Shown piece after piece: positions 5,856 through 22,359 of a stretch of 61,582 bases of DNA. The translations under genes were made by a program, and so were the position numbers. This DNA is from a virus (taxonomy: Duplodnaviria; Caudoviricetes): the IMG/VR virus record IMGVR_UViG_3300028393_000068, positions 1 to 61,582 of that record; one strand, written 5' to 3'. How positions within the stretch are numbered: position 1 is the stretch's first letter; every line of letters begins with the position of its first letter. The notes under the pieces were generated by a model, which searched no databases, had not been told where the DNA came from, and saw only the letters and a program-made list of their open reading frames with translations.

Positions 5856-6767
5856 ATGGCTATTTCACGCGCACAACTACTTAAAGAACTGCTCCCGGGC
5901 CTCAACGCCTTGTTTGGCTTGCAGTACGCTACTTACGGCGAAGAGCACAAAGAACTCTACGAAACAGAGAAATCTGAGCGTAGCTTCGAAGAAGAGACAA
6001 AACTGTCTGGCTTCTCTGCTGCTCCAGTCAAGAACGAGGGTTCAGCCATTGCTTATGACAATGCGCAAGAAGCGTTCACGGCTCGCTACAACCACGAAAC
6101 CATTGCCTTGGGTTTCTCAATCACTGAAGAAGCGGTTGAAGATAACTTGTACGACAGCTTGTCTGCTCGCTACACCAAGGGCTTGGCTCGTGCTATGGCC
6201 TACACCAAGCAGGTTAAAGCTGCATCCGTCTTAAACAACGGTTTCAGCGCAGCCTATGTTGGTGGCGATGGTGTTGCTCTGTTCTCTACAGCGCACCCAT
6301 TAGTGTCTGGTGGCACTAACAGCAACCGTCCTTCAACCAATGCTGACTTGAATGAAACATCGTTGGAAAACGCTGTGATTCAGATCGCCGCTTGGACTGA
6401 TGAGCGTGGCCTGTTGATCGCCGCTAAGCCTAAGAAATTGATTGTGCCTCCAGCACTTCAGTTCGTTGCTACTCGTTTGCTCGAAACCAGCCTCCGTGTT
6501 GGTACAACAGACAACGACATCAACGCATTGAAGAACAACGGTTCAATCCCTGATGGCTACACAATCAACCACTACCTGACCGACACAAACGGCTGGTTCT
6601 TGACAACTGACGTACCTAACGGCTTGAAGCACTTCGAGCGTATGGCGTTGTCCACATCTATGGATGGTGACTTCGACACAGGTAACGTTCGTTACAAGGC
6701 CCGTGAGCGTTATTCGTTTGGCTGGTCTGATCCATTGGGCGTCTTTGGATCACCCGGTTCGACCTAA
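5856..6767 (+). CDS. Major capsid protein (Mu gpT-like, HK97 fold)
   Basis: MAISRAQLLKELLPGLN, GDGVALFSTAHP, PKKLIVPP, RERYSFGWSD motifs; strong SD; followed by a terminator. Confidence 0.88.
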   Translation: MAISRAQLLKELLPGLNALFGLQYATYGEEHKELYETEKSERSFEEETKLSGFSAAPVKNEGSAIAYDNAQEAFTARYNHETIALGFSITEEAVEDNLYDSLSARYTKGLARAMAYTKQVKAASVLNNGFSAAYVGGDGVALFSTAHPLVSGGTNSNRPSTNADLNETSLENAVIQIAAWTDERGLLIAAKPKKLIVPPALQFVATRLLETSLRVGTTDNDINALKNNGSIPDGYTINHYLTDTNGWFLTTDVPNGLKHFERMALSTSMDGDFDTGNVRYKARERYSFGWSDPLGVFGSPGST

Positions 6768-6794
6768 TAAAACAGCCCCACAAGGGTAAGTTTG

Positions 6795-6818
6795 AGGCCA
6801 CCTGCGGGTGGCCTTTTT
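6795..6818 (+). terminator. Rho-independent terminator after the capsid gene
   Basis: AGGCCACC-TGCG-GGTGGCCT followed by a T-tract. Confidence 0.85.
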
Positions 6819-6884
6819 GTTGTCATAAAGTTAAACTACGATGGACTTGCAGCCGCGGTGGTTGCATAAACACAGGGGCACATC

Positions 6885-7124
6885 ATGAAATTTGAAATGG
6901 AATTTGGATACTTTGGTAATAACAAACTTTCTATTGAAACAACTGATTTTGATATGATTCAGATTTTTCAAGAGTTTGTTCAGTTTCAAGAAAACTATGG
7001 CTGGGCGGTTGAGTATGCCGCCGTTGATGAAATTGAAGACGAGTTTGAAGACGAAGACGACACAGAAGAAGAGTTGGATGGCGCTGTAGCTGACGCTGCC
7101 GCAGAAGCTGCTGACAACAAGTAA
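6885..7124 (+). CDS. Small, very acidic protein (moron-like)
   Basis: 79 aa, about 25 D/E versus 3 K; lies between two hairpins. Confidence 0.7.
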   Translation: MKFEMEFGYFGNNKLSIETTDFDMIQIFQEFVQFQENYGWAVEYAAVDEIEDEFEDEDDTEEELDGAVADAAAEAADNK

Positions 7125-7126
7125 TA

Positions 7127-7507
7127 CTAGGGGGCTTCGGCCCCCTTCTTCTTTTTAGCTTTTTTAACAAGCCGTTCGTCGTGGTGGTGTATACGGTGGC
7201 AGTTGGCGCAGAGTACAACGCACTTCTTGACTTCTTCCATAGCACGCTTAAAGGCACGGTTTTTTATCAGTTTGTTGACTGACTCTTCTTTTGTACTGCT
7301 GTCTATGTGGTGGAAGTCAAACGTGGCTGGATGGTTTTGCCCACACTTCACGCAAGCTAATGTAGCTTTAAAGCTACGCCACTGATCTTTATACGCCTTG
7401 GCCGAGGCTTTACTTGCCGCAATTACAACCGCTTTATTGTTGGCATAGTACATACTTGCGTACGTTCTTTGTTTAGTTTGCTTAACTTTTGGGTCTTTAT
7501 ACGGCAT
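7127..7507 (-). CDS. HNH endonuclease family protein
   Basis: CVKCG...FDFHH...KCVVLCANCHRIHH zinc-HNH motif. Confidence 0.85.
   Translation of the reverse strand: MPYKDPKVKQTKQRTYASMYYANNKAVVIAASKASAKAYKDQWRSFKATLACVKCGQNHPATFDFHHIDSSTKEESVNKLIKNRAFKRAMEEVKKCVVLCANCHRIHHHDERLVKKAKKKKGAEAP
7129..7156 (+). terminator. Terminator hairpin GGGGGC-TTCG-GCCCCC
   Basis: 6-7 bp stem, UUCG loop and T-rich tail; overlaps the end of the convergent HNH gene. Confidence 0.7.
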
Positions 7508-7937
7508 GTTTAATCCGATACCGCCAGTACAACGCCGTTTTTAAACCCCAAGGTTGAGATGGCTCAAACATTTTGAAACCTGTAGATATCAAACTGTTAG
7601 CAGATGCGGGGTTTTCGTTGGTGTCAGTGATGACCCAATTCATGCCTAACGTTTTGGCTTTGCGAACCCGCGTTTTAATAAACCTCTTCTGAAGCCCGCG
7701 TCCACGATGAGCGCGTACAACACCTGCCCGACAAAGATACATAGTGTCAGACCAACGACTAGAGGGAACAACACCAGCGAACCCAGCAGCCTCACCGTTC
7801 TGTGTGTAAGCAACATACCAGCATCCTTGTGTGATTGGGTAAATTTTATCGTGGGGAAGACATGCTTTTTGAAGCAACGACAACAACTGCACCACCTCTG
7901 GCTGACGGGTATCAACAGGGACAATGCGGTATTTCAT
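7497..7937 (-). CDS. GNAT family acetyltransferase
   Basis: Motif A (GVVRAHRGRGLQKRFI) and NPASANSLISTGF. Confidence 0.85.
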   Translation of the reverse strand: MKYRIVPVDTRQPEVVQLLSLLQKACLPHDKIYPITQGCWYVAYTQNGEAAGFAGVVPSSRWSDTMYLCRAGVVRAHRGRGLQKRFIKTRVRKAKTLGMNWVITDTNENPASANSLISTGFKMFEPSQPWGLKTALYWRYRIKHAV

Positions 7938-7978
7938 GCCCCCATAATGCCGGAGGATTGTGACAAGAAAAATAATTG

Positions 7979-8007
7979 TTGCGCACTTAAAAATACCGTG
8001 ATATAAA
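7979..8007 (+). promoter_or_regulatory. Sigma70-like promoter
   Basis: TTGCGC-N17-TATAAA with extended TGn. Confidence 0.6.
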
Positions 8008-8016
8008 CACAGTAAT

Positions 8017-8089
8017 CCGGGCTTTCCGGTGCATCAAACAGTCCCGGCTGACGACATACAGATTGATGCACTCCACTTGTATGTAAGGA
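8017..8089 (+). ncRNA. Candidate structured leader RNA (kissing-loop pseudoknot)
   Basis: P1 8017-21/8043-47, P2 8029-37/8063-71, P3 8054-60/8078-84; ends at the SD of gene 8096. Confidence 0.6.
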
Positions 8090-8095
8090 AATATC

Positions 8096-8578
8096 ATGGG
8101 ATTCGCAACACACCTAGGCCCTTGGCTGCTCGGCACTGTTAAAAACACAACCGGCACCACTGCTGGCACGATCCGAAACATGGGCTCAACTACTGTTACC
8201 CAAACGGGCGCAACCACTGTAAGCGACACAACTGCTACTACTTTGTTTGTCTTGCCTGCTGGCGCAATGATTAACAACTTTATCGTGAACATTACCACTG
8301 CCTATGCAGGTACTACCGGTAACACAATCACTGTGAAGATTGGCTCTACAACTCTAGGTACTGTTGGTGGCGCTACCACTACACCTTTGTCTGTTGGCCG
8401 CGCAACATTCACCATCACTGACGCAAGCATTGCTACTTACGAGAACGTAGGTTCAACAGATGCAATCGTTACAGTAACTTACGCCTGTGCTGGTACAGCC
8501 AGCGGCGGTGCTGCTAGCGTGACTTGTGTCTACACAGTCCGTGGTTCTGACGGCGTTGCTAACCCCAGCCAAGCTTAA
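8096..8578 (+). CDS. Putative virion structural protein
   Basis: 160 aa, T/A/G-rich beta protein; SD AAGGA. Confidence 0.7.
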   Translation: MGFATHLGPWLLGTVKNTTGTTAGTIRNMGSTTVTQTGATTVSDTTATTLFVLPAGAMINNFIVNITTAYAGTTGNTITVKIGSTTLGTVGGATTTPLSVGRATFTITDASIATYENVGSTDAIVTVTYACAGTASGGAASVTCVYTVRGSDGVANPSQA

Positions 8579-8586
8579 TTGATCTA

Positions 8587-8602
8587 GGGGGCTTCGGCCC
8601 CC
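8587..8602 (+). terminator. Hairpin GGGGGC-TTCG-GCCCCC (weak terminator or stabiliser)
   Basis: Identical to the 7130-7145 hairpin but with a poor U-tail. Confidence 0.5.
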
Positions 8603-8621
8603 ATTTACAAGGAGATTAATT

Positions 8622-8915
8622 ATGATGCAAACAGACGTAAAAGCGGCGCATTTGAGCGCGGCGGGTTCTTTTATATCGGGGCGAACACGCCTTAGAGGTA
8701 TTGTGGTTAGCCCCAAAGTTACAACAGCGGCAACATTTGAAATTCGTGATGGCAGCGCCACTGCTGCTGTGTTGTTTACAATGGATATTGCCAGCGTTGC
8801 CACCCCGGTAAACTTTAATATCACAATACCCGGCGAAGGTATTGTGGCATCTACAGGGCTTTACTTAACAACCAGCGTAGGAACTATTGTGGGTATTGAA
8901 GTGTTCTATGGCTAA
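8622..8915 (+). CDS. Putative virion structural protein
   Basis: 97 aa beta-rich; SD AAGGAG. Confidence 0.7.
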   Translation: MMQTDVKAAHLSAAGSFISGRTRLRGIVVSPKVTTAATFEIRDGSATAAVLFTMDIASVATPVNFNITIPGEGIVASTGLYLTTSVGTIVGIEVFYG

Positions 8916-9165
8916 GAAAAAAGGCCCCTCACTAGCTATTGGTCGCGGCGAGAAGTTGCCCGTATCCAAAGGTGCGGGGCTGACTGCCAAAGGCCGCGCT
9001 AAGTACAACGCTGCTACGGGTAGTAACCTGAAGGCTCCACAGCCACAAGGCGGCAAGCGCAAGGACTCGTTCTGTGCACGCATGTCAGGTATGCCCGGCC
9101 CCATGAAAGACGAGAAGGGTAAGCCCACCCGTAAGGCGGCTGCCCTTGCAAGATGGAAATGTTGA
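8908..9165 (+). CDS. Small basic protein (DUF6321-like)
   Basis: GLTAKGRAKYN, NLKAP, RKDSFCARM motifs; start reassigned to 8908. Confidence 0.7.
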   Translation: MAKKKGPSLAIGRGEKLPVSKGAGLTAKGRAKYNAATGSNLKAPQPQGGKRKDSFCARMSGMPGPMKDEKGKPTRKAAALARWKC

Positions 9166-9166
9166 T

Positions 9167-9373
9167 ATGACTACAAACTCAGACACAATTAAAAGCACGC
9201 TGGATATTGTTTCAGTGTTTGCAGCCATAGGATCGTTTTTGGAAATGTTTACCCCAATTTTTGGTTTGATTGGCGCAATCTGGACATTGATGCGAATCGC
9301 CGAAATGATTGCGGGTAAACCCTTTGCTGAAATAATCCGCAAGAAGAAGGCTGGCGATGCCATCGACCAGTAA
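9167..9373 (+). CDS. Small membrane protein
   Basis: Hydrophobic segments; tightly packed in the operon. Confidence 0.55.
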   Translation: MTTNSDTIKSTLDIVSVFAAIGSFLEMFTPIFGLIGAIWTLMRIAEMIAGKPFAEIIRKKKAGDAIDQ

Positions 9374-9821
9374 AAAACAACACAACTTCATGGCAGCAAT
9401 AGCGCACAACCCTGCGTTTGCCAAGAAGGTAGGAATACCGCAAAGCGTTGGAAAAGATTTCAACGAAGCGGATAAGGGTAAGAAGTTTGGTAAGGGCGGG
9501 GAAACTCGTCCAGATGTGCAAGGTATCAACAAGCCTAAAACCGATCACGGAAAAATGGCTTTTTTTAAAGAAGGTGGTAATACTATGGCTTCCAAAATGA
9601 ATCCCGGCTTCATGGCAATGATGGCTAAGAAAAAAGGCGCACAAGAAGGCTCTAAGGCTGACATGGCGTCAGACAAAAAGCAAATGATGGGCATGAAAAA
9701 AGGCGGCATGAAAAAGATGGCCAATGGTGGCTCAGCTTCTTCCCGCGCTGATGGTGTTGCTACAAAAGGCAAAACCAAAGGCACAATGATTGCCATGAAC
9801 AAGGGCGGCAAGACCTGCTAA
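9357..9821 (+). CDS. Lys/Met-rich small protein with five [MF]xxGG motifs
   Basis: MPSTSKKQHNFMAAIAH N-terminus; FGKGG, FKEGG, MKKGG, MANGG, MNKGG. Confidence 0.75.
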   Translation: MPSTSKKQHNFMAAIAHNPAFAKKVGIPQSVGKDFNEADKGKKFGKGGETRPDVQGINKPKTDHGKMAFFKEGGNTMASKMNPGFMAMMAKKKGAQEGSKADMASDKKQMMGMKKGGMKKMANGGSASSRADGVATKGKTKGTMIAMNKGGKTC

Positions 9822-9825
9822 GACC

Positions 9826-10101
9826 ATGATGGCCAGCCGTGGAATGGGGGACATCTCCCCCTCTAAAATGCCCAAGGGCGTCAAGAAAGCCCGGCGGGAC
9901 GACACTGACTTCACCCAGTACAAAGAGGGTGGGAAGGTGAATGCGGCTGGCAATTACACAAAGCCAAGTCTTCGCAAGAAGATTGTGTCTCAAGTAAAGT
10001 CAGCAGCCACGCAAGGTACCGGTGCAGGTCTTTGGAGTGCCCGAAAAGCTCAGCTTGTTGCCAAGAAGTACAAGGCGGCAGGCGGGGGTTACCGAGATTG
10101 A
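9826..10101 (+). CDS. Small basic protein (DUF5872-like N part)
   Basis: NYTKPSLRKKI...WSARKAQLVAKKYKAAGGGY. Confidence 0.7.
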   Translation: MMASRGMGDISPSKMPKGVKKARRDDTDFTQYKEGGKVNAAGNYTKPSLRKKIVSQVKSAATQGTGAGLWSARKAQLVAKKYKAAGGGYRD

Positions 10102-10331
10102 AAGCGCCTCAAAAATCATTGAAGGATTGGGGCGACCAAAAATGGGGAACCAAAAGTGGTAAAAAATCTTCTGACACAGGTGAGCGATACCTTCCAAAAG
10201 CTGCGATCAAAAGTCTCAGCGCTAGTGAGTACGCTGCGACGACCAAAGCCAAGCGAGCCGGAAAAGCCGCAGGCAAACAATTCGTAGCACAACCCAAAAC
10301 GATTGCAAAGAAAACGGCGGGGTTTAGATAA
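10098..10331 (+). CDS. Small basic protein (DUF5872-like C part)
   Basis: TTG start overlapping the upstream TGA; QKSLKDWGDQKW and ERYLP motifs. Confidence 0.65.
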   Translation: MKAPQKSLKDWGDQKWGTKSGKKSSDTGERYLPKAAIKSLSASEYAATTKAKRAGKAAGKQFVAQPKTIAKKTAGFR

Positions 10332-10507
10332 TGGCTACCAAAAACTTTATTCAAAACGCAATCAAGAAGCCCGGTGCATTACGCGCATCGTTGGGCGTTA
10401 AAGCCGGTGAAAAGATTCCTGCAAAGAAGCTAAACGCCGCTGCAAAACAACCCGGTAAAATGGGGCAGCGTGCGCGTTTGGCTAAAACTCTTAAGAGCTT
10501 TAAATGA
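10331..10507 (+). CDS. 58-aa basic protein (not in ORF track)
   Basis: MATKNFIQNAIKKPGALRASLGVKAGEKIPAKKL...RARLAKTLKSFK; TAATG and ATGA overlaps on either side. Confidence 0.75.
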   Translation: MATKNFIQNAIKKPGALRASLGVKAGEKIPAKKLNAAAKQPGKMGQRARLAKTLKSFK

Positions 10508-11436
10508 CCACTTCAGGAACCGCAGCGTTTAACCTTGACCTTACTGAGTTGGTTGAGGAAGCATTTGAACGTGCCGGTTCGGAGTTGCGTACGGGCTACG
10601 ACTTACGTACAGCCCGTCGTTCATTGAATTTAATGTTTGCTGATTGGGCAAACCGCGGTGTCAACATGTGGACGTTTGAGCAGGGTACGATTAACCTGAC
10701 TCCGGGTTTGAACACCTACGCGCTTCCCGTTGATACGGTGGATTTGCTTGAGCATGTGATTCGCACGGGCGCGGGTAGCGCGTCCACACAAGCTGACCTG
10801 ACCATCACGCGTATTAGTGTTTCTACCTATGCCACGATCCCCAACAAACTGCAACAAGCCAGACCAATTCAGGTGTGGTATCAGCGTTTGGATGGTCAAA
10901 CTTCATCGATTGGCACCACGCTTAACGGCGGGATCACAGCCACAGACACCACAATCACACTAACTTCCGTTGCAGGACTTCCAGCTACAGGATTTGTACA
11001 GATTGATACCGGAGCTTTAACAGAGACTATCCAGTACGGCTACATCTCTGGCAACGTGCTTTACAACTGTTTCCGTGGGCAGAATGGCACAACCGCTACA
11101 GCACACTCAACAGGCGTGGCTGTATACACGCAGAATCTTCCCTCTGTGACCCTTTGGCCAACACCAGACAACAGTACAACGTATCAGTTCGTTTACTGGC
11201 GCATGCGCCGTATTGATGATGCTGGCGGGGGTGTACGCACGATGGATGTACCTTTCCGCTTCCTGCCCTGTATGGTGGCAGGCTTGGCCTATTACTTGGC
11301 TCTTAAGATTGAAGGTGGCGCTGAGCGCCTACCCGTCTTGAAACAACAGTACGATGAAGCTTGGCAGTTGGCTTCTGATGAAGATCGTGAAAAGGCTTCA
11401 GTTCGGTTTGTTCCACGTCAGATGTACATAAACTAG
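10504..11436 (+). CDS. Putative head-tail adaptor (P22 gp4-like) with inserted beta domain
   Basis: ARRSLNLMFADWAN, LWPTPD, MVAGLAYYLA motifs. Confidence 0.65.
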   Translation: MTTSGTAAFNLDLTELVEEAFERAGSELRTGYDLRTARRSLNLMFADWANRGVNMWTFEQGTINLTPGLNTYALPVDTVDLLEHVIRTGAGSASTQADLTITRISVSTYATIPNKLQQARPIQVWYQRLDGQTSSIGTTLNGGITATDTTITLTSVAGLPATGFVQIDTGALTETIQYGYISGNVLYNCFRGQNGTTATAHSTGVAVYTQNLPSVTLWPTPDNSTTYQFVYWRMRRIDDAGGGVRTMDVPFRFLPCMVAGLAYYLALKIEGGAERLPVLKQQYDEAWQLASDEDREKASVRFVPRQMYIN

Positions 11437-11446
11437 CGGCACGTAA

Positions 11447-11836
11447 ATGGGCAATCGCTTTGCATCCGGTAAGAACAGTATCGCCATGTGCGATAGGTGT
11501 GGCCAACAGTTTAAATTAACGGCTTTGAAAAAAGAAGTTATCAAGACAAAGCTTTACAATTTGATGGTGTGCCCAGTGTGTTGGGATCCAGATCAGCCGC
11601 AGTTGCAGTTGGGTATGTACCCAGTGGATGATCCGCAGGCAGTGCGTGACCCGCGCAAGGACACGACGTACGTCACGGCAGGGGTAAGCGCTACTGGCAG
11701 TCTGACTGGCGGTTCGCGGGATGTTCAGTGGGGATGGAACCCCGTTGGTGGGTCGGTTAATTTTGATGCAGTTTTGACGCCAAACTACTTGGTGGCAACG
11801 GCGTTTGTTGGTACAGTTACGGTAACAGTTTCATAG
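11447..11836 (+). CDS. Zn-finger-containing conserved phage protein
   Basis: CDRCG...CPVCWDPDQPQL. Confidence 0.7.
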   Translation: MGNRFASGKNSIAMCDRCGQQFKLTALKKEVIKTKLYNLMVCPVCWDPDQPQLQLGMYPVDDPQAVRDPRKDTTYVTAGVSATGSLTGGSRDVQWGWNPVGGSVNFDAVLTPNYLVATAFVGTVTVTVS

Positions 11837-11845
11837 GAGCTTAAT

Positions 11846-12040
11846 ATGGCAAAAGAAGACATGAAGTCAGACAAGAAGCAAGACGTTGCTCTGATTAAAA
11901 AAGCGTTCAAGCAGCATGACTCGCAAGAACACAAGGGCGGTAAAGGCACAGCTTTGAAATTAAAAAAAGGTGGCCCCACGTCTGAAGACCGCATGCGTTT
12001 GGGACGTAACTTGTCTCGTGCTGCAAACCAAGGGAAATAA
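11846..12040 (+). CDS. Small basic protein
   Basis: SD AGGAG; LKKGG motif. Confidence 0.65.
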   Translation: MAKEDMKSDKKQDVALIKKAFKQHDSQEHKGGKGTALKLKKGGPTSEDRMRLGRNLSRAANQGK

Positions 12041-12041
12041 T

Positions 12042-12287
12042 ATGGTCAAGGTTAACAATTTACCAGCTTCTGCATACGCCAAGCCCCACACCATGAGTGG
12101 TGCGCCTGTAGGCATCTCTGAGAACCCCGGTTCTGGCGTCAATCGCAGTAAAGCTGACACCGTTGATATGAGCATTGGCAATATCAGCAAATCTGCGGGC
12201 AACGAAATTGTGAAGACATCTGGTATTGTCACCCGCGGTAACGGTGCGGCGACCAAGGGAATTACGGCCAGAGGCCCGATGGCATGA
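12042..12287 (+). CDS. Small conserved protein
   Basis: C-terminal RGNGAATKG...RGPMA; start reassigned to 12042. Confidence 0.6.
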   Translation: MVKVNNLPASAYAKPHTMSGAPVGISENPGSGVNRSKADTVDMSIGNISKSAGNEIVKTSGIVTRGNGAATKGITARGPMA

Positions 12288-12940
12288 ATTACGCCGCACT
12301 CAGCACTGCTATCCAAGCCTACACGGAGAATACAGAAGCGAATTTTGTCGCTGAGATACCCGTGTTCGTTCAGCAGGCTGAGCAGCGTATTTACAACAAC
12401 GTCCAGTTCCCGTCTATTCGCAAGAATGTAACGGGTGTAATGTCTACCAATAACAAGTATCTTGCTTGCCCTAATGACTTCTTGGCTGTCTATTCAATGG
12501 CAGTTATTGACGGTGATGGTAACTACGAGTATTTGTTAAACAAAGATGTTAACTTTATTCGACAAGCCTACCCACTACCAACGGACACGGCTATCCCAAG
12601 GTATTACGCTTTGTTTGGCCCACAGTCTACCAACGCGGCTGAGTTATCTTTTATTATTGGCCCAACACCTAATGCCAATTACAACGTTGAGTTGCATTAC
12701 TACTTCTACCCAGAGTCAATTGTGACTGCGGGTACAACATGGCTGGGTGACAACTTTGACTCTGTGCTGCTATACGGTTCGTTGGTTGAGGCTTACACCT
12801 ACATGAAGGGTGAAGCCGACATAATGGGCTTGTACAACGGTAAGTATCAGGAAGCATTAGCGTTGGCTAAACGTTTGGGCGATGGTATGGAGCGTCAAGA
12901 CGCTTATCGTTCTGGTCAGTTCCGTCAGAAGGTGACTTGA
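12284..12940 (+). CDS. Putative tail adaptor (T7 gp11/tubular A-like)
   Basis: FVQQAEQRI, PRYYA, GPTP, LLYGSLVEAY motifs. Confidence 0.65.
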   Translation: MNYAALSTAIQAYTENTEANFVAEIPVFVQQAEQRIYNNVQFPSIRKNVTGVMSTNNKYLACPNDFLAVYSMAVIDGDGNYEYLLNKDVNFIRQAYPLPTDTAIPRYYALFGPQSTNAAELSFIIGPTPNANYNVELHYYFYPESIVTAGTTWLGDNFDSVLLYGSLVEAYTYMKGEADIMGLYNGKYQEALALAKRLGDGMERQDAYRSGQFRQKVT

Positions 12941-16176: not shown

Positions 16177-17064
16177 ATGTCTCTTAGTAAAGTTGGCGGG
16201 ATTATCTCAGCCGGTTTAAACGGCATTAACTACCCTGTCACAGCGGTGGAATACTTATGTGTGGCTGGCGGGGGTGGGGGTGGCGCAAGAAATGCGGGCG
16301 GTTATGCGGCAGGTGGCGGCGGTGGCGCTGGAGGTCTTTTAACTGCTACGGGATTTGCTGTAACTATTGGCTCAAGCATTACAGTGACTGTTGGTGCTGG
16401 CGGTGCGGCAGATACAAGCGGAGTTAATTCTTCTATTGCTGGCGGTACAACCATAACGTCTACTGGTGGTGGATATGGCGCTGATTACGCAGGCGGCTAC
16501 AGACAAGCGGCAAATGGTGGTTCTGGTGGCGGTGGCGGTGGCGCTAATTCTTACCCAACAGGGGGGACAGGAACTGCTGGGCAAGGAAATGCTGGTGGAA
16601 CTGCTACGGGTGCGGCCAGCGATAATGGTGCTGGTGGCGGTGGTGCAGGTTCAGTAGGTTTGCCAAATACAGCATCTACTGGTGGTAATGGCGGCACAGG
16701 CATTGTGTCTAGCATTAGCGGCTCTGCTGTTCAATACGCTGGCGGTGGTGGTGGCGGGGTTTATACGTCAGGAACTTATTTTGGTGGATTAGGCGGTGGT
16801 GGTGGCGGTGGAAACGGGGGAACTGCGGCTTCAGGGTCTGCCGCTGTAGGGTTTACTGGAATGGCTAATACTGGTGGAGGTGCTGGTGCTTCTTCAGGTA
16901 ACGCTAGTGCTACAGCAGGAGCCGCAGGCGGCTCTGGAATCGTAATACTCCGTTATCCCTCATATTTAGCCCCTGCTACATCAACAACAGGCTCACCAGA
17001 AACATACATCGCTGGCGCATGGCGTGTGTACAGATTTGTAGCCAGCGGCACAATTACATTCTGA
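16177..17064 (+). CDS. Glycine-rich adhesin-like protein A (1 domain)
   Basis: VEYLCVAGGGG...GGSGIVILRY...SGTITF. Confidence 0.75.
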   Translation: MSLSKVGGIISAGLNGINYPVTAVEYLCVAGGGGGGARNAGGYAAGGGGGAGGLLTATGFAVTIGSSITVTVGAGGAADTSGVNSSIAGGTTITSTGGGYGADYAGGYRQAANGGSGGGGGGANSYPTGGTGTAGQGNAGGTATGAASDNGAGGGGAGSVGLPNTASTGGNGGTGIVSSISGSAVQYAGGGGGGVYTSGTYFGGLGGGGGGGNGGTAASGSAAVGFTGMANTGGGAGASSGNASATAGAAGGSGIVILRYPSYLAPATSTTGSPETYIAGAWRVYRFVASGTITF

Positions 17065-17070
17065 GGATAT

Positions 17071-18762
17071 ATGGCACAAGGTCTTTTTACACTCAGACAA
17101 GTTAACCAAGCCATTCGTCAAGGCGCATGGTCAGCATTTAATCCACCTCAATTTGTAGAGTATCTTTGCGTTGCTGGTGGTGGTGGCGGTGGTGGGACTA
17201 ACAATGCTGGTGGAGGTGGTGCGGGAGGTTTGTTAACAGGGATTCTTCCTGTAACTGCGGGTGCAACTCTAACTGTGACTGTAGGCGGTGGCGGCCCCGG
17301 CACATCAGGTACTACACCTGCAACAAATGGAGATAACTCTGTTTTTTCAACCATTACTGCTACGGGCGGGGGTGGCGGTTGCGGCGGTAATTCACTTACT
17401 AATATAGGTGCTAGTGGCGGTTCGGGTGGCGGTTCGGGATATGCAACTATTTCTTCTGCTGGTCTTGGAATAACGGGACAAGGAAATAATGGTGGCATTG
17501 GAAACAACGCTGGAGCGCCAGATTATTCTGGTGGTGGTGGTGGTGGGGCTGGAACAATTGGAATAAATGGTGTTGCTTCTGGTGGTGGTGACGGCGGCGC
17601 AGGAATTGCATCAGCGATCACTGGCACAGTAGTTACTTATGCTGGTGGAGGTGGTGCTGGAACTCAAGTTACCCCTACGTCGGCTGGTGGCGTTGGTGGC
17701 GGTGGTATTGGCGGTATATCAACGGTTTCTCCATCTGCCCCAACAGCAGGAGCGGCAAACACTGGTGGCGGCGGTGGCGGTGGTACTCAAGGCGGCGGCA
17801 CTACAGGTGGCGCAGGCGGTTCAGGCATCGTAGTAGTCAGATACCCCGGCTCTGTGCAGTTTTACACTGGTGGTAGTGTTACTTCTACAGGCAATTATAT
17901 TGTTCACACATTTACATCTTCAGGAACTTTGGCTCCTACAACCCCTTCAAATGCAGGGTTTAACGGATTTATAGTTGTTGGCGGTGGCGGTGGTTCTGGT
18001 GATACTGGCGCATACCCTCCAGATGGCGGTGGTGGCGGTGGCGGAGCAGGGGGCGCTCTTATTTACACCAACTACACTTGGTCTGGTACATACACAGTTA
18101 CCATAGGTGCTGGCGGTGCGGCCCGTACAAGCGGAACAAATACAACTTTTGTAACTGGCGCTACAACATGGACTTCTTATGGCGGTGGTAAGGGCGCTCA
18201 AAACTCTACATTTAATGCTGGTTCTGGTGGTTCAGGCGGTGGTGGTGCGGCTGGTACAATTACAGATTTTGGTACTTCTACACAAACCACACAATCTGGC
18301 GCTACAGGTTACGGGAACTCTGGTGGTATTGCCGCCCAGTCACCATATCGCGCTGGCGGTGGTGGTGGCGCTTTAGGTGCTGGTCAATCTGGAAACAATG
18401 GAACTACTATTTCAGGCTACGGCGGAACGGGCATTCAATTCCCGCCCGGTACAGCTAATTACTATGCTGGAGGAGGCGGTGGTGGTGGTTGGGGTAATGT
18501 TACAACTGGAGGTGCTGGTGGATTGGGCGGTGGGGGCGCAGGTGCAACTGTAGGTACAGGCACGGCTGGAACCGTTAATACTGGTGGTGGTGCTGGAGGC
18601 GGTGGATACATTTCTTCAGGAGGAGCCGCCGCTGGTGGTTCTGGAGTTGTTATTATTTGCTCAAGCACTGCGGCATCTAGCACAACTGGTTCTCCAGCAA
18701 TATCATCAAATGGTAGCAACTATGTCTACACATTTACAGGCTCTGGAACAATCACCTTCTAA
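17071..18762 (+). CDS. Glycine-rich adhesin-like protein B (2 domains)
   Basis: Two polyglycine domains, each closed by GGSG[IV]V[VI]. Confidence 0.75.
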   Translation: MAQGLFTLRQVNQAIRQGAWSAFNPPQFVEYLCVAGGGGGGGTNNAGGGGAGGLLTGILPVTAGATLTVTVGGGGPGTSGTTPATNGDNSVFSTITATGGGGGCGGNSLTNIGASGGSGGGSGYATISSAGLGITGQGNNGGIGNNAGAPDYSGGGGGGAGTIGINGVASGGGDGGAGIASAITGTVVTYAGGGGAGTQVTPTSAGGVGGGGIGGISTVSPSAPTAGAANTGGGGGGGTQGGGTTGGAGGSGIVVVRYPGSVQFYTGGSVTSTGNYIVHTFTSSGTLAPTTPSNAGFNGFIVVGGGGGSGDTGAYPPDGGGGGGGAGGALIYTNYTWSGTYTVTIGAGGAARTSGTNTTFVTGATTWTSYGGGKGAQNSTFNAGSGGSGGGGAAGTITDFGTSTQTTQSGATGYGNSGGIAAQSPYRAGGGGGALGAGQSGNNGTTISGYGGTGIQFPPGTANYYAGGGGGGGWGNVTTGGAGGLGGGGAGATVGTGTAGTVNTGGGAGGGGYISSGGAAAGGSGVVIICSSTAASSTTGSPAISSNGSNYVYTFTGSGTITF

Positions 18763-18771
18763 GGACAAAGC

Positions 18772-19635
18772 ATGAGCAATTTATTAGGTGGATTTCTTTC
18801 CGCAACCTTTAATCCACTGTCTGGTACACCTACGACTGTTGAATATCTTGTGGTTGCTGGTGGGGGTGGTGCAAGTGGCGACCGTGGCGGCGGTGGAGGT
18901 GCTGGTGGTTTATTGCAAGCGGCTGGTTTTGCCGTTGCCGCTGGGTCTGCTTTAACGGTTACTGTAGGCGCAGGTGGTGCGGGTGGTTTGCACTCAGCAA
19001 GCGGTGGTGCTGGCTCAAATTCTGTATTTTCTTCTATTACCTCTACGGGTGGTGGTATTGGCGCAAGGAGTGGCGCTCAAGCAACTACTGGTGGTTCTGG
19101 CGGTGGCGGTTGGAGTGGAGCAAATCAAACTGGCGCGGCTGGAACTTCTGGTCAGGGCAATGCTGGTGGCAACGGCCCTGCTAGTGGAGGAAATTATCCT
19201 GCGGGCGGCGGCGGGGGCGCTGGTTCGGTAGGCGATAGTCCAATAGCAAGTGGAACAACTGGCGGTGCTGGTGGCACAGGGATGTGTTCTACCATTACTG
19301 GGCAACGTGTTTTTTATGCTGGCGGCGGTGGCGGTGGAACATTTGGTACTAGCGCACAAAGTAGTCTTGGTGGCGCAGGTGGTGGTGGCGCAGGTGCTGG
19401 TGCTACTGCTGGCAATGGTACAAGCGGAACTTCAAACACAGGTGGCGGGGGAGGTGGCGGTTGGTACAACGATGCAACGCAATACTATGGCGGCTCTGGC
19501 GGCTCTGGCATCGTAGTCATCCGCTACCCCTCATCACAATCAGCACCCACTTCCACAACAGGAAGCCCTCAGATAAACTACGCAGACGGGTATCAGATTT
19601 ATACTTTCACATCTTCTGGCACTATCACTTTTTAA
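18772..19635 (+). CDS. Glycine-rich adhesin-like protein C (1 domain)
   Basis: VEYLVVAGGG...GGSGIVVIRY...SGTITF. Confidence 0.75.
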   Translation: MSNLLGGFLSATFNPLSGTPTTVEYLVVAGGGGASGDRGGGGGAGGLLQAAGFAVAAGSALTVTVGAGGAGGLHSASGGAGSNSVFSSITSTGGGIGARSGAQATTGGSGGGGWSGANQTGAAGTSGQGNAGGNGPASGGNYPAGGGGGAGSVGDSPIASGTTGGAGGTGMCSTITGQRVFYAGGGGGGTFGTSAQSSLGGAGGGGAGAGATAGNGTSGTSNTGGGGGGGWYNDATQYYGGSGGSGIVVIRYPSSQSAPTSTTGSPQINYADGYQIYTFTSSGTITF

Positions 19636-20264
19636 TGCAAGTCTTTGTTTACACCATCACTAACAAGATCAACATGAAACAGTATGTTGGTATTACACGC
19701 AACATGCGTCAGCGTTGGGGTGAGCATAAACTTCCATATAACAATAAGACCTCTATGGGCAAAGCCATACACAAGTATGGTCAGCAGAATTTTGAAATGG
19801 TGCAAATTGCAAGCGCAACAAGCTGGGCCAATGCTCAGTTGGTTGAGAAGGCATTGATTAAACAACTTAACACCAGAGTGCCAAATGGGTACAATTTGAC
19901 AGATGGTGGTGATGGAACGCTTGGGTTTAAACACACGGCAGAAGAATGCCAACGCAGAAGCGAAAGGTGTCCAACTCGCAATCCAGAAACCATGAAGTTG
20001 ATTGCCGACAAACAACGAGGCGTTAAGCGCCCCCATACATCGGGTGAAAATAATCCTTTGTTTGGTAGAACTGGGTCAAAATCACATATGACTAAACACA
20101 TTGTGGTTGCTACAAATATGGCAACTCAAGAGCAAAGAACTTTGATTGGCGCTAAAGCCATTAAAGAGGCGGGATTTAATAGATCGCATGTATACGCATG
20201 TGCTAATAAGCAACGCAAAACCCATCAACAGCACACTTTTGAATTTCAAGGAGAATTAGCATGA
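19635..20264 (+). mobile_element. Free-standing GIY-YIG homing endonuclease with NUMOD3-like motifs
   Basis: VYTITN..N.KQYVGIT...R...H, YNLTDGGDG, GENNPLFG; true start 19635 (TAATG overlap). Confidence 0.85.
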
Positions 20265-20620
20265 GCCATTTTGCCAAGGTCGAGAACGGAATTGTCACAT
20301 CAGTTATTGTGATTGAGCAAGACGTTTTGAATTTAGGTCATTGGGGTGATCCCGCTTCCTATGTCCAAACAAGTTACAACACCTCTGGTGGAGTTCACTT
20401 GCAAGGTGGTACGCCACTGCGTAAGAATTTTGCTGGCATCGGTTACACATACGACTCAGGCCGTGATGCGTTTATTCCTCCCAAACCATTTGCATCTTGG
20501 TTGTTGGATGAAGGCACTTGTCAGTGGAGCGCACCCACAGCTATGCCCGTAGAAGAAGGCAAACGCTTTACATGGGACGAACCCACAACATCTTGGGTTG
20601 AAGTCGTAGTACCCGCCTAA
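20261..20620 (+). CDS. Putative tail fibre assembly/accessory protein
   Basis: MSHFAKV...RKNFAGIGYTYD..RDAFIPPKPF.SW...WDE. Confidence 0.6.
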   Translation: MSHFAKVENGIVTSVIVIEQDVLNLGHWGDPASYVQTSYNTSGGVHLQGGTPLRKNFAGIGYTYDSGRDAFIPPKPFASWLLDEGTCQWSAPTAMPVEEGKRFTWDEPTTSWVEVVVPA

Positions 20621-20631
20621 TAGGAATAATC

Positions 20632-22359
20632 ATGGCTCAATACAGTGGAATGTGGACGCTAAGTCAGGTCAGTCAAGCCGTAAAAGACTTGAACTGGACG
20701 GGTCTACCTCCGTCTGTTGTTGAGTATTTGATTGTTGCTGGTGGGGGTGGCGGTGGTCGTGAAAATTACCAATCTGGATGCGGAGGCGGAGGTGGTGCTG
20801 GTGGATTGCTTGCAGGCTATGCGGGTATTACATCTGGTACTTCTTACTTTGTAACAGTTGGCGCGGGCGGAGCAGGTGTAGCGGCAACTCCAGCAAGTAA
20901 CGGCAACATTGGAAATAATTCCGTTTTTGACGCTACCACTTCTGGTGCATTTACAGGGCGTATTGTTGCCACTGGTGGTGGAGGCGGTGGTGGTGGAACA
21001 AGTATTCCAGCCACAGCGGGTAGTGGTGGTTCTGGTGGTGGTGCGGGCCAAGCAACAAATATGTCTCCCGGCTCTGGAACATCAGGGCAAGGCAATAGAG
21101 GCGGTAATGGAACTTCTACAAGTGCTGGCGGCGGGGGTGGCGGTGCAGGCACACAAGGGTTGGATGGCCCATCATCAGGCTCATTCGGAACAAATGGTGG
21201 TGCAGGCATTTCTTCGGCTATATCTGGAACTGTTACTGCATACGCTGGCGGTGGTGGTGGGGCTGGTGGCAATGGTAGCGGTACTAATGGTATCGGTGGA
21301 GTTGGCGGTGGTGGTAATGGAATGTTGTACAGCAGTACACAAGGAACCGCAGGGACAGCTAACACGGGTGGCGGTGGTGGTGGGAACGCAAACAGTGGCG
21401 CAACAAGTGCGGCTGGCGGTTCAGGCATTGTCATTCTTCGCTACCCCGGCTCAATTCAATATTTCACTGGTGGCACAGTAACTTTAAGCGGCATCAGCCC
21501 TAACGGTTATTTTGTTGTTCACACATTTACTTCGTCTGGCACTTTAGCGCCCACTGCGGCTACAAATTTAGCCCCTACACTGCCTTCTAATACGGCAGTC
21601 TTCTATACATCAGGCGTGTGGACTGCACCCGCAGGCGCTACGCAAGTTCAATATCTTGTGGTAGCTGGTGGTGGTGGCGGAGGAATGACTAATACTGCTG
21701 GCGGTTACTCAGCCGCAGGCGGTGGCGGTGCTGGTGGATTCTTAACGGCTACTGGTCTTTCTGTAACTGCTGGGACTACATACACTGTAGTAGTTGGCGC
21801 TGGTGGTGCTGGTGCAGTAACAGAAGGCACAGGGGTTACAGGTTCAAGTTCTATTTTTAGTTCTATTACTGCTACAGGTGGCGGCGGCGGCGGTAATGCT
21901 GGCGCTACTGCTAACAATGGTTTACCGGGCGGATCGGGGGGTGGTTCTTCTGGCGGTAGTGCGGGACAGACAGGCGGGGCGGCTTCTCCAGCAGGTCAAG
22001 GTAATGCTGGCGGTTCCGTTACTGGAAATATTTTTGGTGGTGGCGGTGGCGGTGGTGCAGGAGCCGCCGGTTCGGGCGGTACTGGACAATACAATGGTTA
22101 CGCTGGCGGTATTGGTTTGACATCTTCTTTAATTGGTACATCAACCTACTATGCTGGCGGTGGTGGTGGCGGAGGTTATTACTTAAATACTGGTGGTGCT
22201 GGTGGTACAGGTGGTGGTGGTACAGGCGCATCAAACGTCCCCGCAATTGCTGGAACTACTAACACAGGCGGTGGTGGTGGTGGCAATAATGGAACCTCAA
22301 GCACAATACAAGTTGGCGCTAACGGCGGCTCTGGCATCGTAATCATCAAGTGGAGCTAA
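20632..22359 (+). CDS. Glycine-rich adhesin-like protein D (2 domains)
   Basis: Two polyglycine domains; ends GGSGIVIIKWS. Confidence 0.75.
   Translation: MAQYSGMWTLSQVSQAVKDLNWTGLPPSVVEYLIVAGGGGGGRENYQSGCGGGGGAGGLLAGYAGITSGTSYFVTVGAGGAGVAATPASNGNIGNNSVFDATTSGAFTGRIVATGGGGGGGGTSIPATAGSGGSGGGAGQATNMSPGSGTSGQGNRGGNGTSTSAGGGGGGAGTQGLDGPSSGSFGTNGGAGISSAISGTVTAYAGGGGGAGGNGSGTNGIGGVGGGGNGMLYSSTQGTAGTANTGGGGGGNANSGATSAAGGSGIVILRYPGSIQYFTGGTVTLSGISPNGYFVVHTFTSSGTLAPTAATNLAPTLPSNTAVFYTSGVWTAPAGATQVQYLVVAGGGGGGMTNTAGGYSAAGGGGAGGFLTATGLSVTAGTTYTVVVGAGGAGAVTEGTGVTGSSSIFSSITATGGGGGGNAGATANNGLPGGSGGGSSGGSAGQTGGAASPAGQGNAGGSVTGNIFGGGGGGGAGAAGSGGTGQYNGYAGGIGLTSSLIGTSTYYAGGGGGGGYYLNTGGAGGTGGGGTGASNVPAIAGTTNTGGGGGGNNGTSSTIQVGANGGSGIVIIKWS

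Follow-up and report, generated by a model that had tools for sequence, protein, structure and literature searches.

A covariation-supported double-pseudoknot leader RNA upstream of a virion-module gene in HTVC023P-type phages of lakes and oceans

The DNA considered here, referred to as the window, is the whole of IMG/VR virus record IMGVR_UViG_3300028393_000068 (61,582 bases, rated 100% complete, with the terminase gene split over both ends), and its subject is a compact RNA of about 68 bases in the 5' leader of the gene that begins at position 8096 (gene 8096). The + strand encodes terminase, portal, the major capsid protein (5856-6767), an SU10-type adaptor, and tail and ejection proteins, and the - strand encodes primase/helicase and DNA polymerase. 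The capsid protein is 62-72% identical to its counterparts in HTVC023P, HTVC027P, DSL-LC04 and Planktothrix phage Pag-Yong1, which identifies the window as an HTVC023P-type podovirus. Gene 8096 (8096-8578, + strand, ATG at 8096) encodes a protein of 160 amino acids and, apart from inserted open reading frames (ORFs), is the first gene of the virion module after the capsid gene, at the head of + strand virion genes spanning 8096-39137. An original prediction, made from the window's letters, had placed two hairpins, P1 and P3, between a promoter and this gene, with loops complementary over 9 bp, and had drawn them as a kissing-loop pseudoknot. P1, the 9-bp complement, P3, the Shine-Dalgarno (SD) sequence and the ATG were all found exactly where it had put them; related phages have since shown the structure to be larger than was drawn, and to be maintained by compensatory change from lakes to oceans.

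Read 5' to 3' on the + strand, the locus begins with a -35-like hexamer, TTGCGC (7979-7984, matching 3 of the 6 consensus positions), separated by 17 bases from the -10 box TATAAA (8002-8007), which together with TG at 7999-8000 forms the extended -10 box TG-A-TATAAA (7999-8007). From the -10 spacing, transcription is predicted to start at 8014-8015. There follow A5 (CCGGG, 8017-8021), the 5' strand of helix A (the former P1), and A' (8026-8029), a proximal strand marked by pairing counts and covariation as an alternative partner of A5, with which it would form an alternative 5' hairpin. The two strands of helix B, B5 and B3, are the loop-loop complement seen earlier, read as GTGCATCAA 8029-37 / TTGATGCAC 8063-71, with G8028-U8072 as a possible tenth pair. 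Between them lie a first junction purine, J1 (A8038), near-invariant in freshwater leaders and invariant in marine leaders; C5 (8039-8041) and C3 (8048-8050), the strands of helix C, which is new in this analysis; A3 (CCCGG, 8043-8047), the 3' strand of helix A, inside the loop of hairpin C; a second junction purine, J2 (A8051), followed by E5 (C8052); D5 (ACATACA, 8054-8060), the 5' strand of helix D (the former P3), in a loop closed by the pair C8052-G8061; and E3 (G8061) with the third junction purine, J3 (A8062), both invariant in alignment A1 described below. D3 (TGTATGT, 8078-8084) completes helix D and in the window abuts the SD sequence AAGGA (8085-8089).

As deduced from sequence and pairing, the fold is a three-way junction, formed by helix B, hairpin C and a mini-hairpin, E, closed by C8052-G8061, that carries two interlocked pseudoknots within about 68 bases. 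The strand order is A5, (A'), B5, C5, A3, C3, D5, B3, D3; helix B (9-10 bp) encloses hairpin C (3 bp) and mini-hairpin E, and each joint of the junction holds one purine (8038, 8051 and 8062). Helix A joins the loop of hairpin C (1 + 5 bases) to the opening bases of the predicted transcript, and helix D joins the loop of mini-hairpin E to the strand immediately before the SD sequence, so that outside the fold only the ribosome-binding stretch would remain single-stranded. The H-type order S1a-S2a-S1b-S2b occurs twice, in A with C and in B with D, and the complete fold is thus a composite of two H-type knots on one shared three-way junction. A3 continues directly into C3, with one base on the opposite side of the C loop; the same loop geometry is known from fully paired kissing loops, and stacking of helix A on helix C appears feasible. 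The kissing-loop drawing is therefore a view of helices A, B and D from the opposite side, valid but incomplete in that helix C and the pair C8052-G8061 were missed.

The window alone carries no statistical signal for this structure. Positions 8010-8100 reach no better nested minimum-energy fold than shuffled sequences do (z = +0.62; 142 of 200 shuffles fold at least as well), nested minimum-energy folding being unable to represent pseudoknots, and the reality of the structure had therefore to be decided on relatives. In the 130 bases upstream of 78 related loci, compensatory changes were visible in helices A, B and D, and also in the fourth helix, C (CAG 8039-41/CTG 8048-50), for which the relatives carry CTG/CAG, CCG/CGG, CCC/GGG and CCAG/CTGG. 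In alignment A1, made with MAFFT from 70 distinct leaders, the pairing fraction is 88.4% of cells (90.6% for helix A), as against 29-40% for slid partners. A covariance model, R1, was then used to align 100 distinct leaders; since it was built with helices A and D only, it holds nothing of helices B and C or of the pair C8052-G8061. In this alignment the full structure pairs in 93.1% of cells (shuffled mean 72.1%, with 0 of 500 shuffles reaching the observed value; slid partners 26.9-39.1%), and 23 of the 24 pairs have changed on both sides. Helix B pairs in 97.7% of cells and helix C in 98.3%, with 9 of 9 and 3 of 3 pairs, respectively, changed on both sides, and positions 8052 and 8061 form CG in 93 leaders, UA in 7 and are unpaired in none. 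G8061 changes to A only jointly with the change of C8052 to U, and this pair was first noticed in leaders that the first parser had rejected. Mutual information with average product correction (APC), calculated on an anchored alignment of 129 leaders, gives its highest values to the proposed pairs, first among them a helix C pair. The covariation among homologues that had been proposed as a check is thus clearly positive by all three routes, and the earlier argument that three crossing helices were unlikely by chance, which finds no excess in the window by itself, is strongly supported by the relatives.

Among 122 parsed leaders, the numbers of distinct complementary strand pairs are 9 for helix A, 52 for B, 7 for C and 25 for D. 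Helix D has at least 5 contiguous pairs in 121 of the 122, and it takes at least six forms unrelated in sequence, every one matched by a complement of its own. G-U cells far outnumber A-C cells (66 vs 13) in helices A, B, C and E, which identifies the + strand as the folded strand. Chance complementarity, or inverted repeats acting at the level of DNA as a protein-binding, replication or packaging signal, would suit the absence of an energetic signal in the window alone, but is contradicted by the compensatory pairs, by the G-U excess and by the fixed position relative to promoter and SD sequence; interleaved helices, moreover, cannot form a cruciform in duplex DNA. Both versions of this explanation are effectively excluded. 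The A' strand forms at least 4 contiguous pairs with A5 in 109 of the 122 leaders, is absent from some lineages, and by mutual information covaries with position 2 of A5, so that the 5' end seems to have kept two pairings that cannot form together. Only 8 of the 91 columns of alignment A1 are invariant and 9 near-invariant, mostly paired positions or the ATG, and the marine set is similar; so few conserved unpaired bases suit a role based on shape.

The fold holds a constrained position between promoter and gene. Of 112 distinct upstream regions, 100 have a -10-like box whose end lies 7-9 bases 5' of helix A, and 87 have TG upstream; from this spacing the transcript would begin about 0-3 bases before helix A. 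The promoter hexamers in the window are as first described, and the -10-like box is kept among relatives, but the TTGCGC/TATAAA site fails the hexamer rules of a generic promoter scan and was not listed by it. At the other flank the distance from the end of D3 to the ATG is 10-14 bases in 110 of 122 leaders, which puts the SD sequence directly after D3 or overlapping it. It is free in the window's lineage, half-covered in others and wholly within helix D in a third group, so that P3 does end on the SD sequence in the window, as had been noted, while in some lineages D3 covers part of it. No U run follows D3, and the element is therefore not an intrinsic terminator.

R1 finds the motif once in the window, at 99 bits (the next match has 10 bits), and finds it once, immediately upstream of the gene, there as well as in 79 of 80 loci of a first set and in 77 of 80 of a second; three of the four misses (L076, L097 and L155) have no upstream DNA, and in the fourth, L086, the gene is joined to a truncated capsid gene. 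In that locus (L086:1100-1203) the gene follows the truncated capsid gene directly, without terminator, promoter or leader, and it may be a deletion variant or an assembly chimera. Elsewhere, promoter and leader stay with the gene whatever the inserts upstream. A continuation of the RNA structure into the coding region was rejected, as synonymous sites vary from codon 2 of gene 8096 onward and the element accordingly stops before the ATG, and a leader peptide was rejected because relatives do not conserve the short ATG frame of 8066-8086. One single sequence, L105:1100-1203, departs from the usual pairing: its hairpin-C loop has no partner at the 5' end and has a perfect complement, CTAGG, on the SD sequence, which the loop would thus mask directly.

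A riboswitch or a ribozyme was among the functions first suggested for the element. Searches of Rfam 15 with window positions 7000-9000 (E <= 10) returned only snoZ5, at 18 bits and elsewhere in the stretch, and searches with five related loci, HTVC023P and DSL-LC04 included (E <= 1), returned three weak matches below the gathering threshold and outside the motif, in agreement with the earlier statement that no Rfam family could be assigned. A ligand-sensing riboswitch of a new class, or a self-cleaving ribozyme, would be in keeping with a compact pseudoknot of no known family that has a conserved-purine junction beside the SD sequence. Riboswitches such as preQ1-II, SAM-II and SAM-V are SD-sequestering pseudoknots with many invariant pocket bases, found at metabolic genes; the phage leader is likewise a small pseudoknot whose 3' strand reaches the SD sequence, but it has few invariant bases, an SD coverage that varies with lineage, and no Rfam match. 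The many conserved unpaired nucleotides of a riboswitch pocket were not found in the freshwater or the marine leader alignment, and the gene controlled belongs to a virion module. Nor is a terminator or a clear on/off platform evident: no U run follows D3, masking of the SD sequence depends on lineage, and the alternative A5:A' pairing, though it exists, lies away from it; the hosts, moreover, are as different as SAR11 and freshwater bacteria. HDV-like ribozymes, named for hepatitis delta virus, have a nested double pseudoknot of the order P1-P2-P3-P3'-P1'-P4-P4'-P2', from which the leader's order A5-B5-C5-A3-C3-D5-B3-D3 differs, again with no Rfam match. The hammerhead core consists of invariant CUGANGA and GAAA; the window's similar CUGACGA (8048-54) gives way in relatives to CAGACGA, CGGACGU or GGGACGA, there is no conserved GAAA, and Rfam gave no match. 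A riboswitch or ribozyme is on these grounds very improbable. What stands of the first suggestion is a strand-specific structured RNA with crossing helices in the 5' leader of gene 8096, beside its SD sequence, for which these two functions fit least.

The motif is kept in hundreds of lake and ocean phages, freshwater and marine members of the HTVC023P type alike. In cultured Pelagibacter phage HTVC023P, R1 places it directly before gp41 (45 bits, E = 3e-13), and in the lake phage DSL-LC04 directly before the gene of an annotated "cement protein" (14 bits, E = 0.0055); the hand parse agrees in both cases, and in HTVC027P the motif was recognized by hand parse. For HTVC023P gp41, 365 marine relatives were confirmed in IMG/VR, and parsing recovered the same architecture in 35 of 36 distinct marine leaders, in two forms, of which the HTVC027P-type form has a helix A of 6-7 bp, a helix C of 2 bp, and D3 overlapping the SD sequence. 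Compensatory changes occur here also (helix A, CCTAG/CTAGG to ACTAG/CTAGT; helix D, CCTAG/CTAGG to CCTAA/TTAGG), and the junction purines and the C8052...G8061 pair are kept throughout the marine set. Pag-Yong1 gave no R1 hit and, by hand, only a partial likeness, and no clear motif was seen in Roseobacter phage CRP-902, Alcaligenes phage QDWS535, Caulobacter phage GB2A or isolate ct2G2228. Isolated phages searched by BLASTN with window positions 7400-8700 gave no match. The only relative among genome contigs, in which the motif is present, is a contig in a metagenome-assembled genome of Candidatus Methylopumilus, and as 1 of 151 genomes sampled from that bacterium's family matched, it is more likely a binned phage contig than a prophage. 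As a separate observation, three GenBank phage records, named for Synechococcus, Planktothrix (Pag-Yong1) and Planktothricoides, have the same length of 65,014 bases and the same capsid-protein match.

The gene 8096 protein has a near-invariant N-terminal segment of 32 residues among relatives down to about 40% identity overall, followed by a Thr/Gly/Ala-rich and highly variable remainder, a pattern that suggests an anchor with an exposed variable domain. Relatives were confirmed in viral contigs for 574 of the first 598 candidates, and a large metagenome protein collection holds 3143 clusters, very abundant in lake metagenomes, none of them named and none with a Pfam family. The protein is related to the DSL-LC04 "cement protein" (hhalign probability 97.3%) and has no detectable relation to HTVC023P gp41 (hhalign probability 0.1); the first ~10 residues of the latter pair are alike by eye. 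Pfam and PHROGs gave nothing usable for the protein or its syntenic counterparts, a profile search against PDB sequences gave no match at E <= 10, and TBLASTN against isolated phages gave none; the ESM Atlas values for Mtd_N (0.78) and Phage_cement_2 (0.76) are both below a meaningful level. From synteny, the DSL-LC04 annotation and the hhalign relation, the product probably decorates or cements the capsid. With the leader kept before proteins that have no detectable relation, those of the window and of HTVC023P, the RNA is at least as conserved as the protein it precedes, and with the leader kept from lake to SAR11 phages, whatever reads the fold must be common to very different hosts.

A second conserved RNA element lies at 8579-8619, right after the gene 8096 stop codon. 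It consists of a GC hairpin with a UUCG-type loop (8587-8602) nested in a long-range helix (TTGATCT 8579-85 / AGATTAA 8613-19) that covers the end of the SD sequence and the spacer of the next gene (ATG 8622). Of 135 distinct regions downstream of gene 8096, 124 fold to <= -10 kcal/mol within 45 bases, and the variation seen in the element is mostly G-U change; it looks like a translational-coupling device.

The conserved N-terminal segment and the conserved junction bear on whether the leader is a translational operator, that is, a fold locked or opened near the SD sequence by a protein (the gene's own unassembled product, another late protein or a host RNA-binding protein), with the two pairings of A5 as its two states. 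Phage T4 gene 32, E. coli rpsO (S15) and the alpha operon (S4) have cis-acting pseudoknots in their 5' leaders at or near the ribosome-binding site that control translation, and autogenous repression at a pseudoknotted leader is found for T4 gene 32, the P22 scaffolding protein and several ribosomal proteins. The phage leader shares with the first three a pseudoknot beside the ribosome-binding site, and the alpha-operon leader is in addition a multi-helix nested pseudoknot; however, its strand order, three-way junction and two loop-to-flank helices match none of them, its 5' terminus is part of the fold, and there is no relation by sequence or through Rfam. An operator would be well served by the junction core that is kept from lake to ocean (purines 8038, 8051 and 8062, and the closing pairs C8039-G8050 and C8052-G8061), which resembles a recognition surface, by the covariation of both A5 pairings, and by a D3 strand that touches or overlaps the SD sequence. 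The L105 leader, with the partner of its C loop on the SD sequence itself and not at the 5' end, fits as well, and the near-invariant 32 residues were counted in its favor. On the other hand, the gene 8096 protein belongs to no RNA-binding family known in Pfam or PHROGs, and the leader is kept before HTVC023P gp41, to which that protein has no detectable relation, so that a shared autogenous binder is doubtful. Translational control by a bound protein is regarded as the chief rival to the reading favored below, possible though with more doubt than conviction; the conserved junction and the covarying alternative 5' hairpin fit it better.

The surroundings of the leader indicate how the gene may be expressed. 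A terminator follows the capsid gene at 6794-6815, and terminator-like hairpins stand before the promoter in many loci. Of the 128 loci whose upstream DNA is long enough, 89 have the end of the capsid gene fewer than 300 bases away, 34 have an insert of 0.5-1.6 kb, and 5 show no capsid gene in the available stretch; HNH homologues occur in 28 of the 128. A gene with its own promoter behind the capsid terminator fits a separate expression unit. The interval from the capsid terminator to the leader promoter (6816-7978) is an insertion hot spot, which in the window holds an acidic ORF of 79 amino acids (6885-7124), a two-way terminator (7129-7146) and, on the - strand, genes for an HNH endonuclease and a GNAT acetyltransferase (7127-7937); in Caulobacter phage GB2A a homing endonuclease occupies the corresponding site. 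Of 24 public runs that cover part of 7600-9000, 5 are recorded as RNA libraries, and one lake metatranscriptome contains a 582-base contig identical to 8026-8607 with nothing on 7600-8025. This is a weak hint, as the RNA-library sequences are assembled contigs whose ends and uncovered parts are no evidence for transcript ends.

The same setting recalls the put RNAs of phage HK022, and the nascent leader might in like manner bind its own RNA polymerase and confer terminator resistance over the ~31 kb of virion genes downstream. HK022 put RNAs have two stem-loops and no pseudoknots, and are not tied to the SD sequence or to the first bases of the transcript. The phage leader is similarly promoter-proximal, structured and about 70 bases long, and it heads a long operon, just after the capsid terminator and before the + strand virion genes (8096-39137), with its shape conserved more than its sequence and kept while the protein downstream changes. 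It is pseudoknotted, however, and tied to both the SD sequence and the first transcript bases, and such fixed distances to transcript start and SD are not needed by a polymerase-binding RNA; nor was a convincing + strand terminator listed at 8600-12500 (the scan ended at 12500). A put-like function is thus quite improbable.

The favored reading, proposed tentatively and with considerable doubt, is that the element is a cis-acting, post-transcriptional leader that buries the 5' end of the messenger and sets the translation of an abundant virion protein. A host-type promoter would start the transcript about 0-3 bases before helix A, and the leader would fold into the junction of helix B, hairpin C and mini-hairpin E, with helices A and D locking both flanks. 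The buried 5' end would be hidden from 5'-end-dependent decay by RppH and RNase E-type enzymes, and the fold would fix the presentation of the SD sequence and the rate of initiation, giving a steady yield, from its own transcription unit, of a protein presumably needed in large numbers. The alternative 5' hairpin formed with A' may serve as a folding intermediate or a switch. Familiar cases are the simple 5'-terminal stem-loops that stabilize bacterial messengers, such as that of the ompA leader. In the phage leader, too, structure starts 2-3 bases from the predicted 5' end and only the ribosome-binding stretch is unpaired, but in place of a simple hairpin it has two pseudoknots, a junction that is conserved and a second possible pairing of the 5' end.

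Several observations weigh against this proposal. A plain 5' hairpin would suffice for protection of the end, and recognition of the leader by some partner is suggested by so elaborate a junction, in which three purines are conserved and the closing pairs are near-invariant; the covariation of the alternative A5:A' pairing is likewise not required of a stabilizer. Helix D, which would lock the downstream flank, has the weakest support, pairing in 77.7% of cells of the R1 alignment and partly through a register shift, and in a partner-swap test 28% of helix D partners taken from other classes matched the performance of the true partner, a test too blunt for helices A and D in that many of their classes are related through G-U intermediates. 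The nested fold of the leader is not unusually stable. The transcription start is a prediction from a promoter that the generic scan did not call, and another RNA-library contig runs from a relative's promoter sequence into the leader, which implies that those libraries hold DNA or read-through, and that contig ends may mark strain differences. With SD coverage varying by lineage, the direction of any effect on translation is ambiguous, and the virion role of the gene 8096 protein is drawn from synteny and the annotation of another record.

A bolder version of the same proposal is suggested by the exoribonuclease-resistant RNAs (xrRNAs) of flaviviruses and plant viruses, in which the 5' end pairs with a junction and passes through a ring, and which resist the nuclease Xrn1. 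The phage leader would be their prokaryotic counterpart, an RNA "end-cap" that locks the 5' end and the SD flank into one rigid body, blocks 5'-end-dependent nucleases and docks the ribosome, with the alternative 5' hairpin making it a two-state switch. The two have in common a three-way junction, a 5' end held in one pseudoknot and a second pseudoknot from a loop to downstream sequence. They differ, in a comparison made by base pairing alone, in that the 5' end of the phage leader pairs with a hairpin loop and not with the junction, in the enzymes opposed (bacterial enzymes vs Xrn1), and in that no Rfam xrRNA family matched the leader. The end-cap is considered unlikely. The text of one xrRNA paper (PMC12397905) makes no mention of phages.

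No published description of this fold was found, nor, in the papers searched, any that deals with a pelagiphage together with a pseudoknot or RNA secondary structure, and the paper on HTVC023P-type genomes (PMC9599517) makes no mention of untranslated regions, noncoding or intergenic sequence, riboswitches, promoters or secondary structure. Fremin, Bhatt and Kyrpides (2023; PMC10690425) screened IMG/VR intergenic regions for candidate structured RNAs and list unnamed candidates of 68 bases, among them DNAVirus_1867 and DNAVirus_1868, whose sources are phages of marine and non-marine origin and two isolates that infect Pelagibacter. Their length is that of the window's fold, and section 2.1 of the Results of PMC10690425 describes no such fold. 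The leader motif may be one of these unnamed entries. CMfinder models of that kind are not known to give pseudoknots. Even if the sequence has been catalogued, no description seems to exist of its pseudoknotted fold, of its position at the 5' end of the transcript or of its gene context.

Phage late genes are known to be controlled by structured leaders, and this fold, absent from Rfam, may add one, with covariation support that is unusually strong for an RNA of 68 bases. The questions it raises are how so small an RNA could tie up both the 5' end and the flank of the ribosome-binding site, and whether RNA knots protect or meter capsid-protein messengers; the presence of the motif in cultured HTVC023P, HTVC027P and DSL-LC04 makes them directly testable. 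It is also a small, clean target for structure determination and a possible part for stabilizing synthetic bacterial messengers. Should it prove to be a stabilizing leader only, it would be a well-supported new RNA family of ordinary function; should the end-cap reading hold, phages that rank among the most abundant in lakes and oceans, those of SAR11 included, would be using such a device.

Two further features of the window lie apart from the leader. Among the ejection or internal virion genes, a 2099-amino-acid ORF at 32838-39137 matches an unnamed PHROG over its last ~680 residues only. At 16177-22359, four consecutive genes all match one part of PHROG 2295, a family without known function, and one of the four also matches a family of tail fibre assembly; the four resemble a tandemly repeated family of tail-fibre-like proteins.

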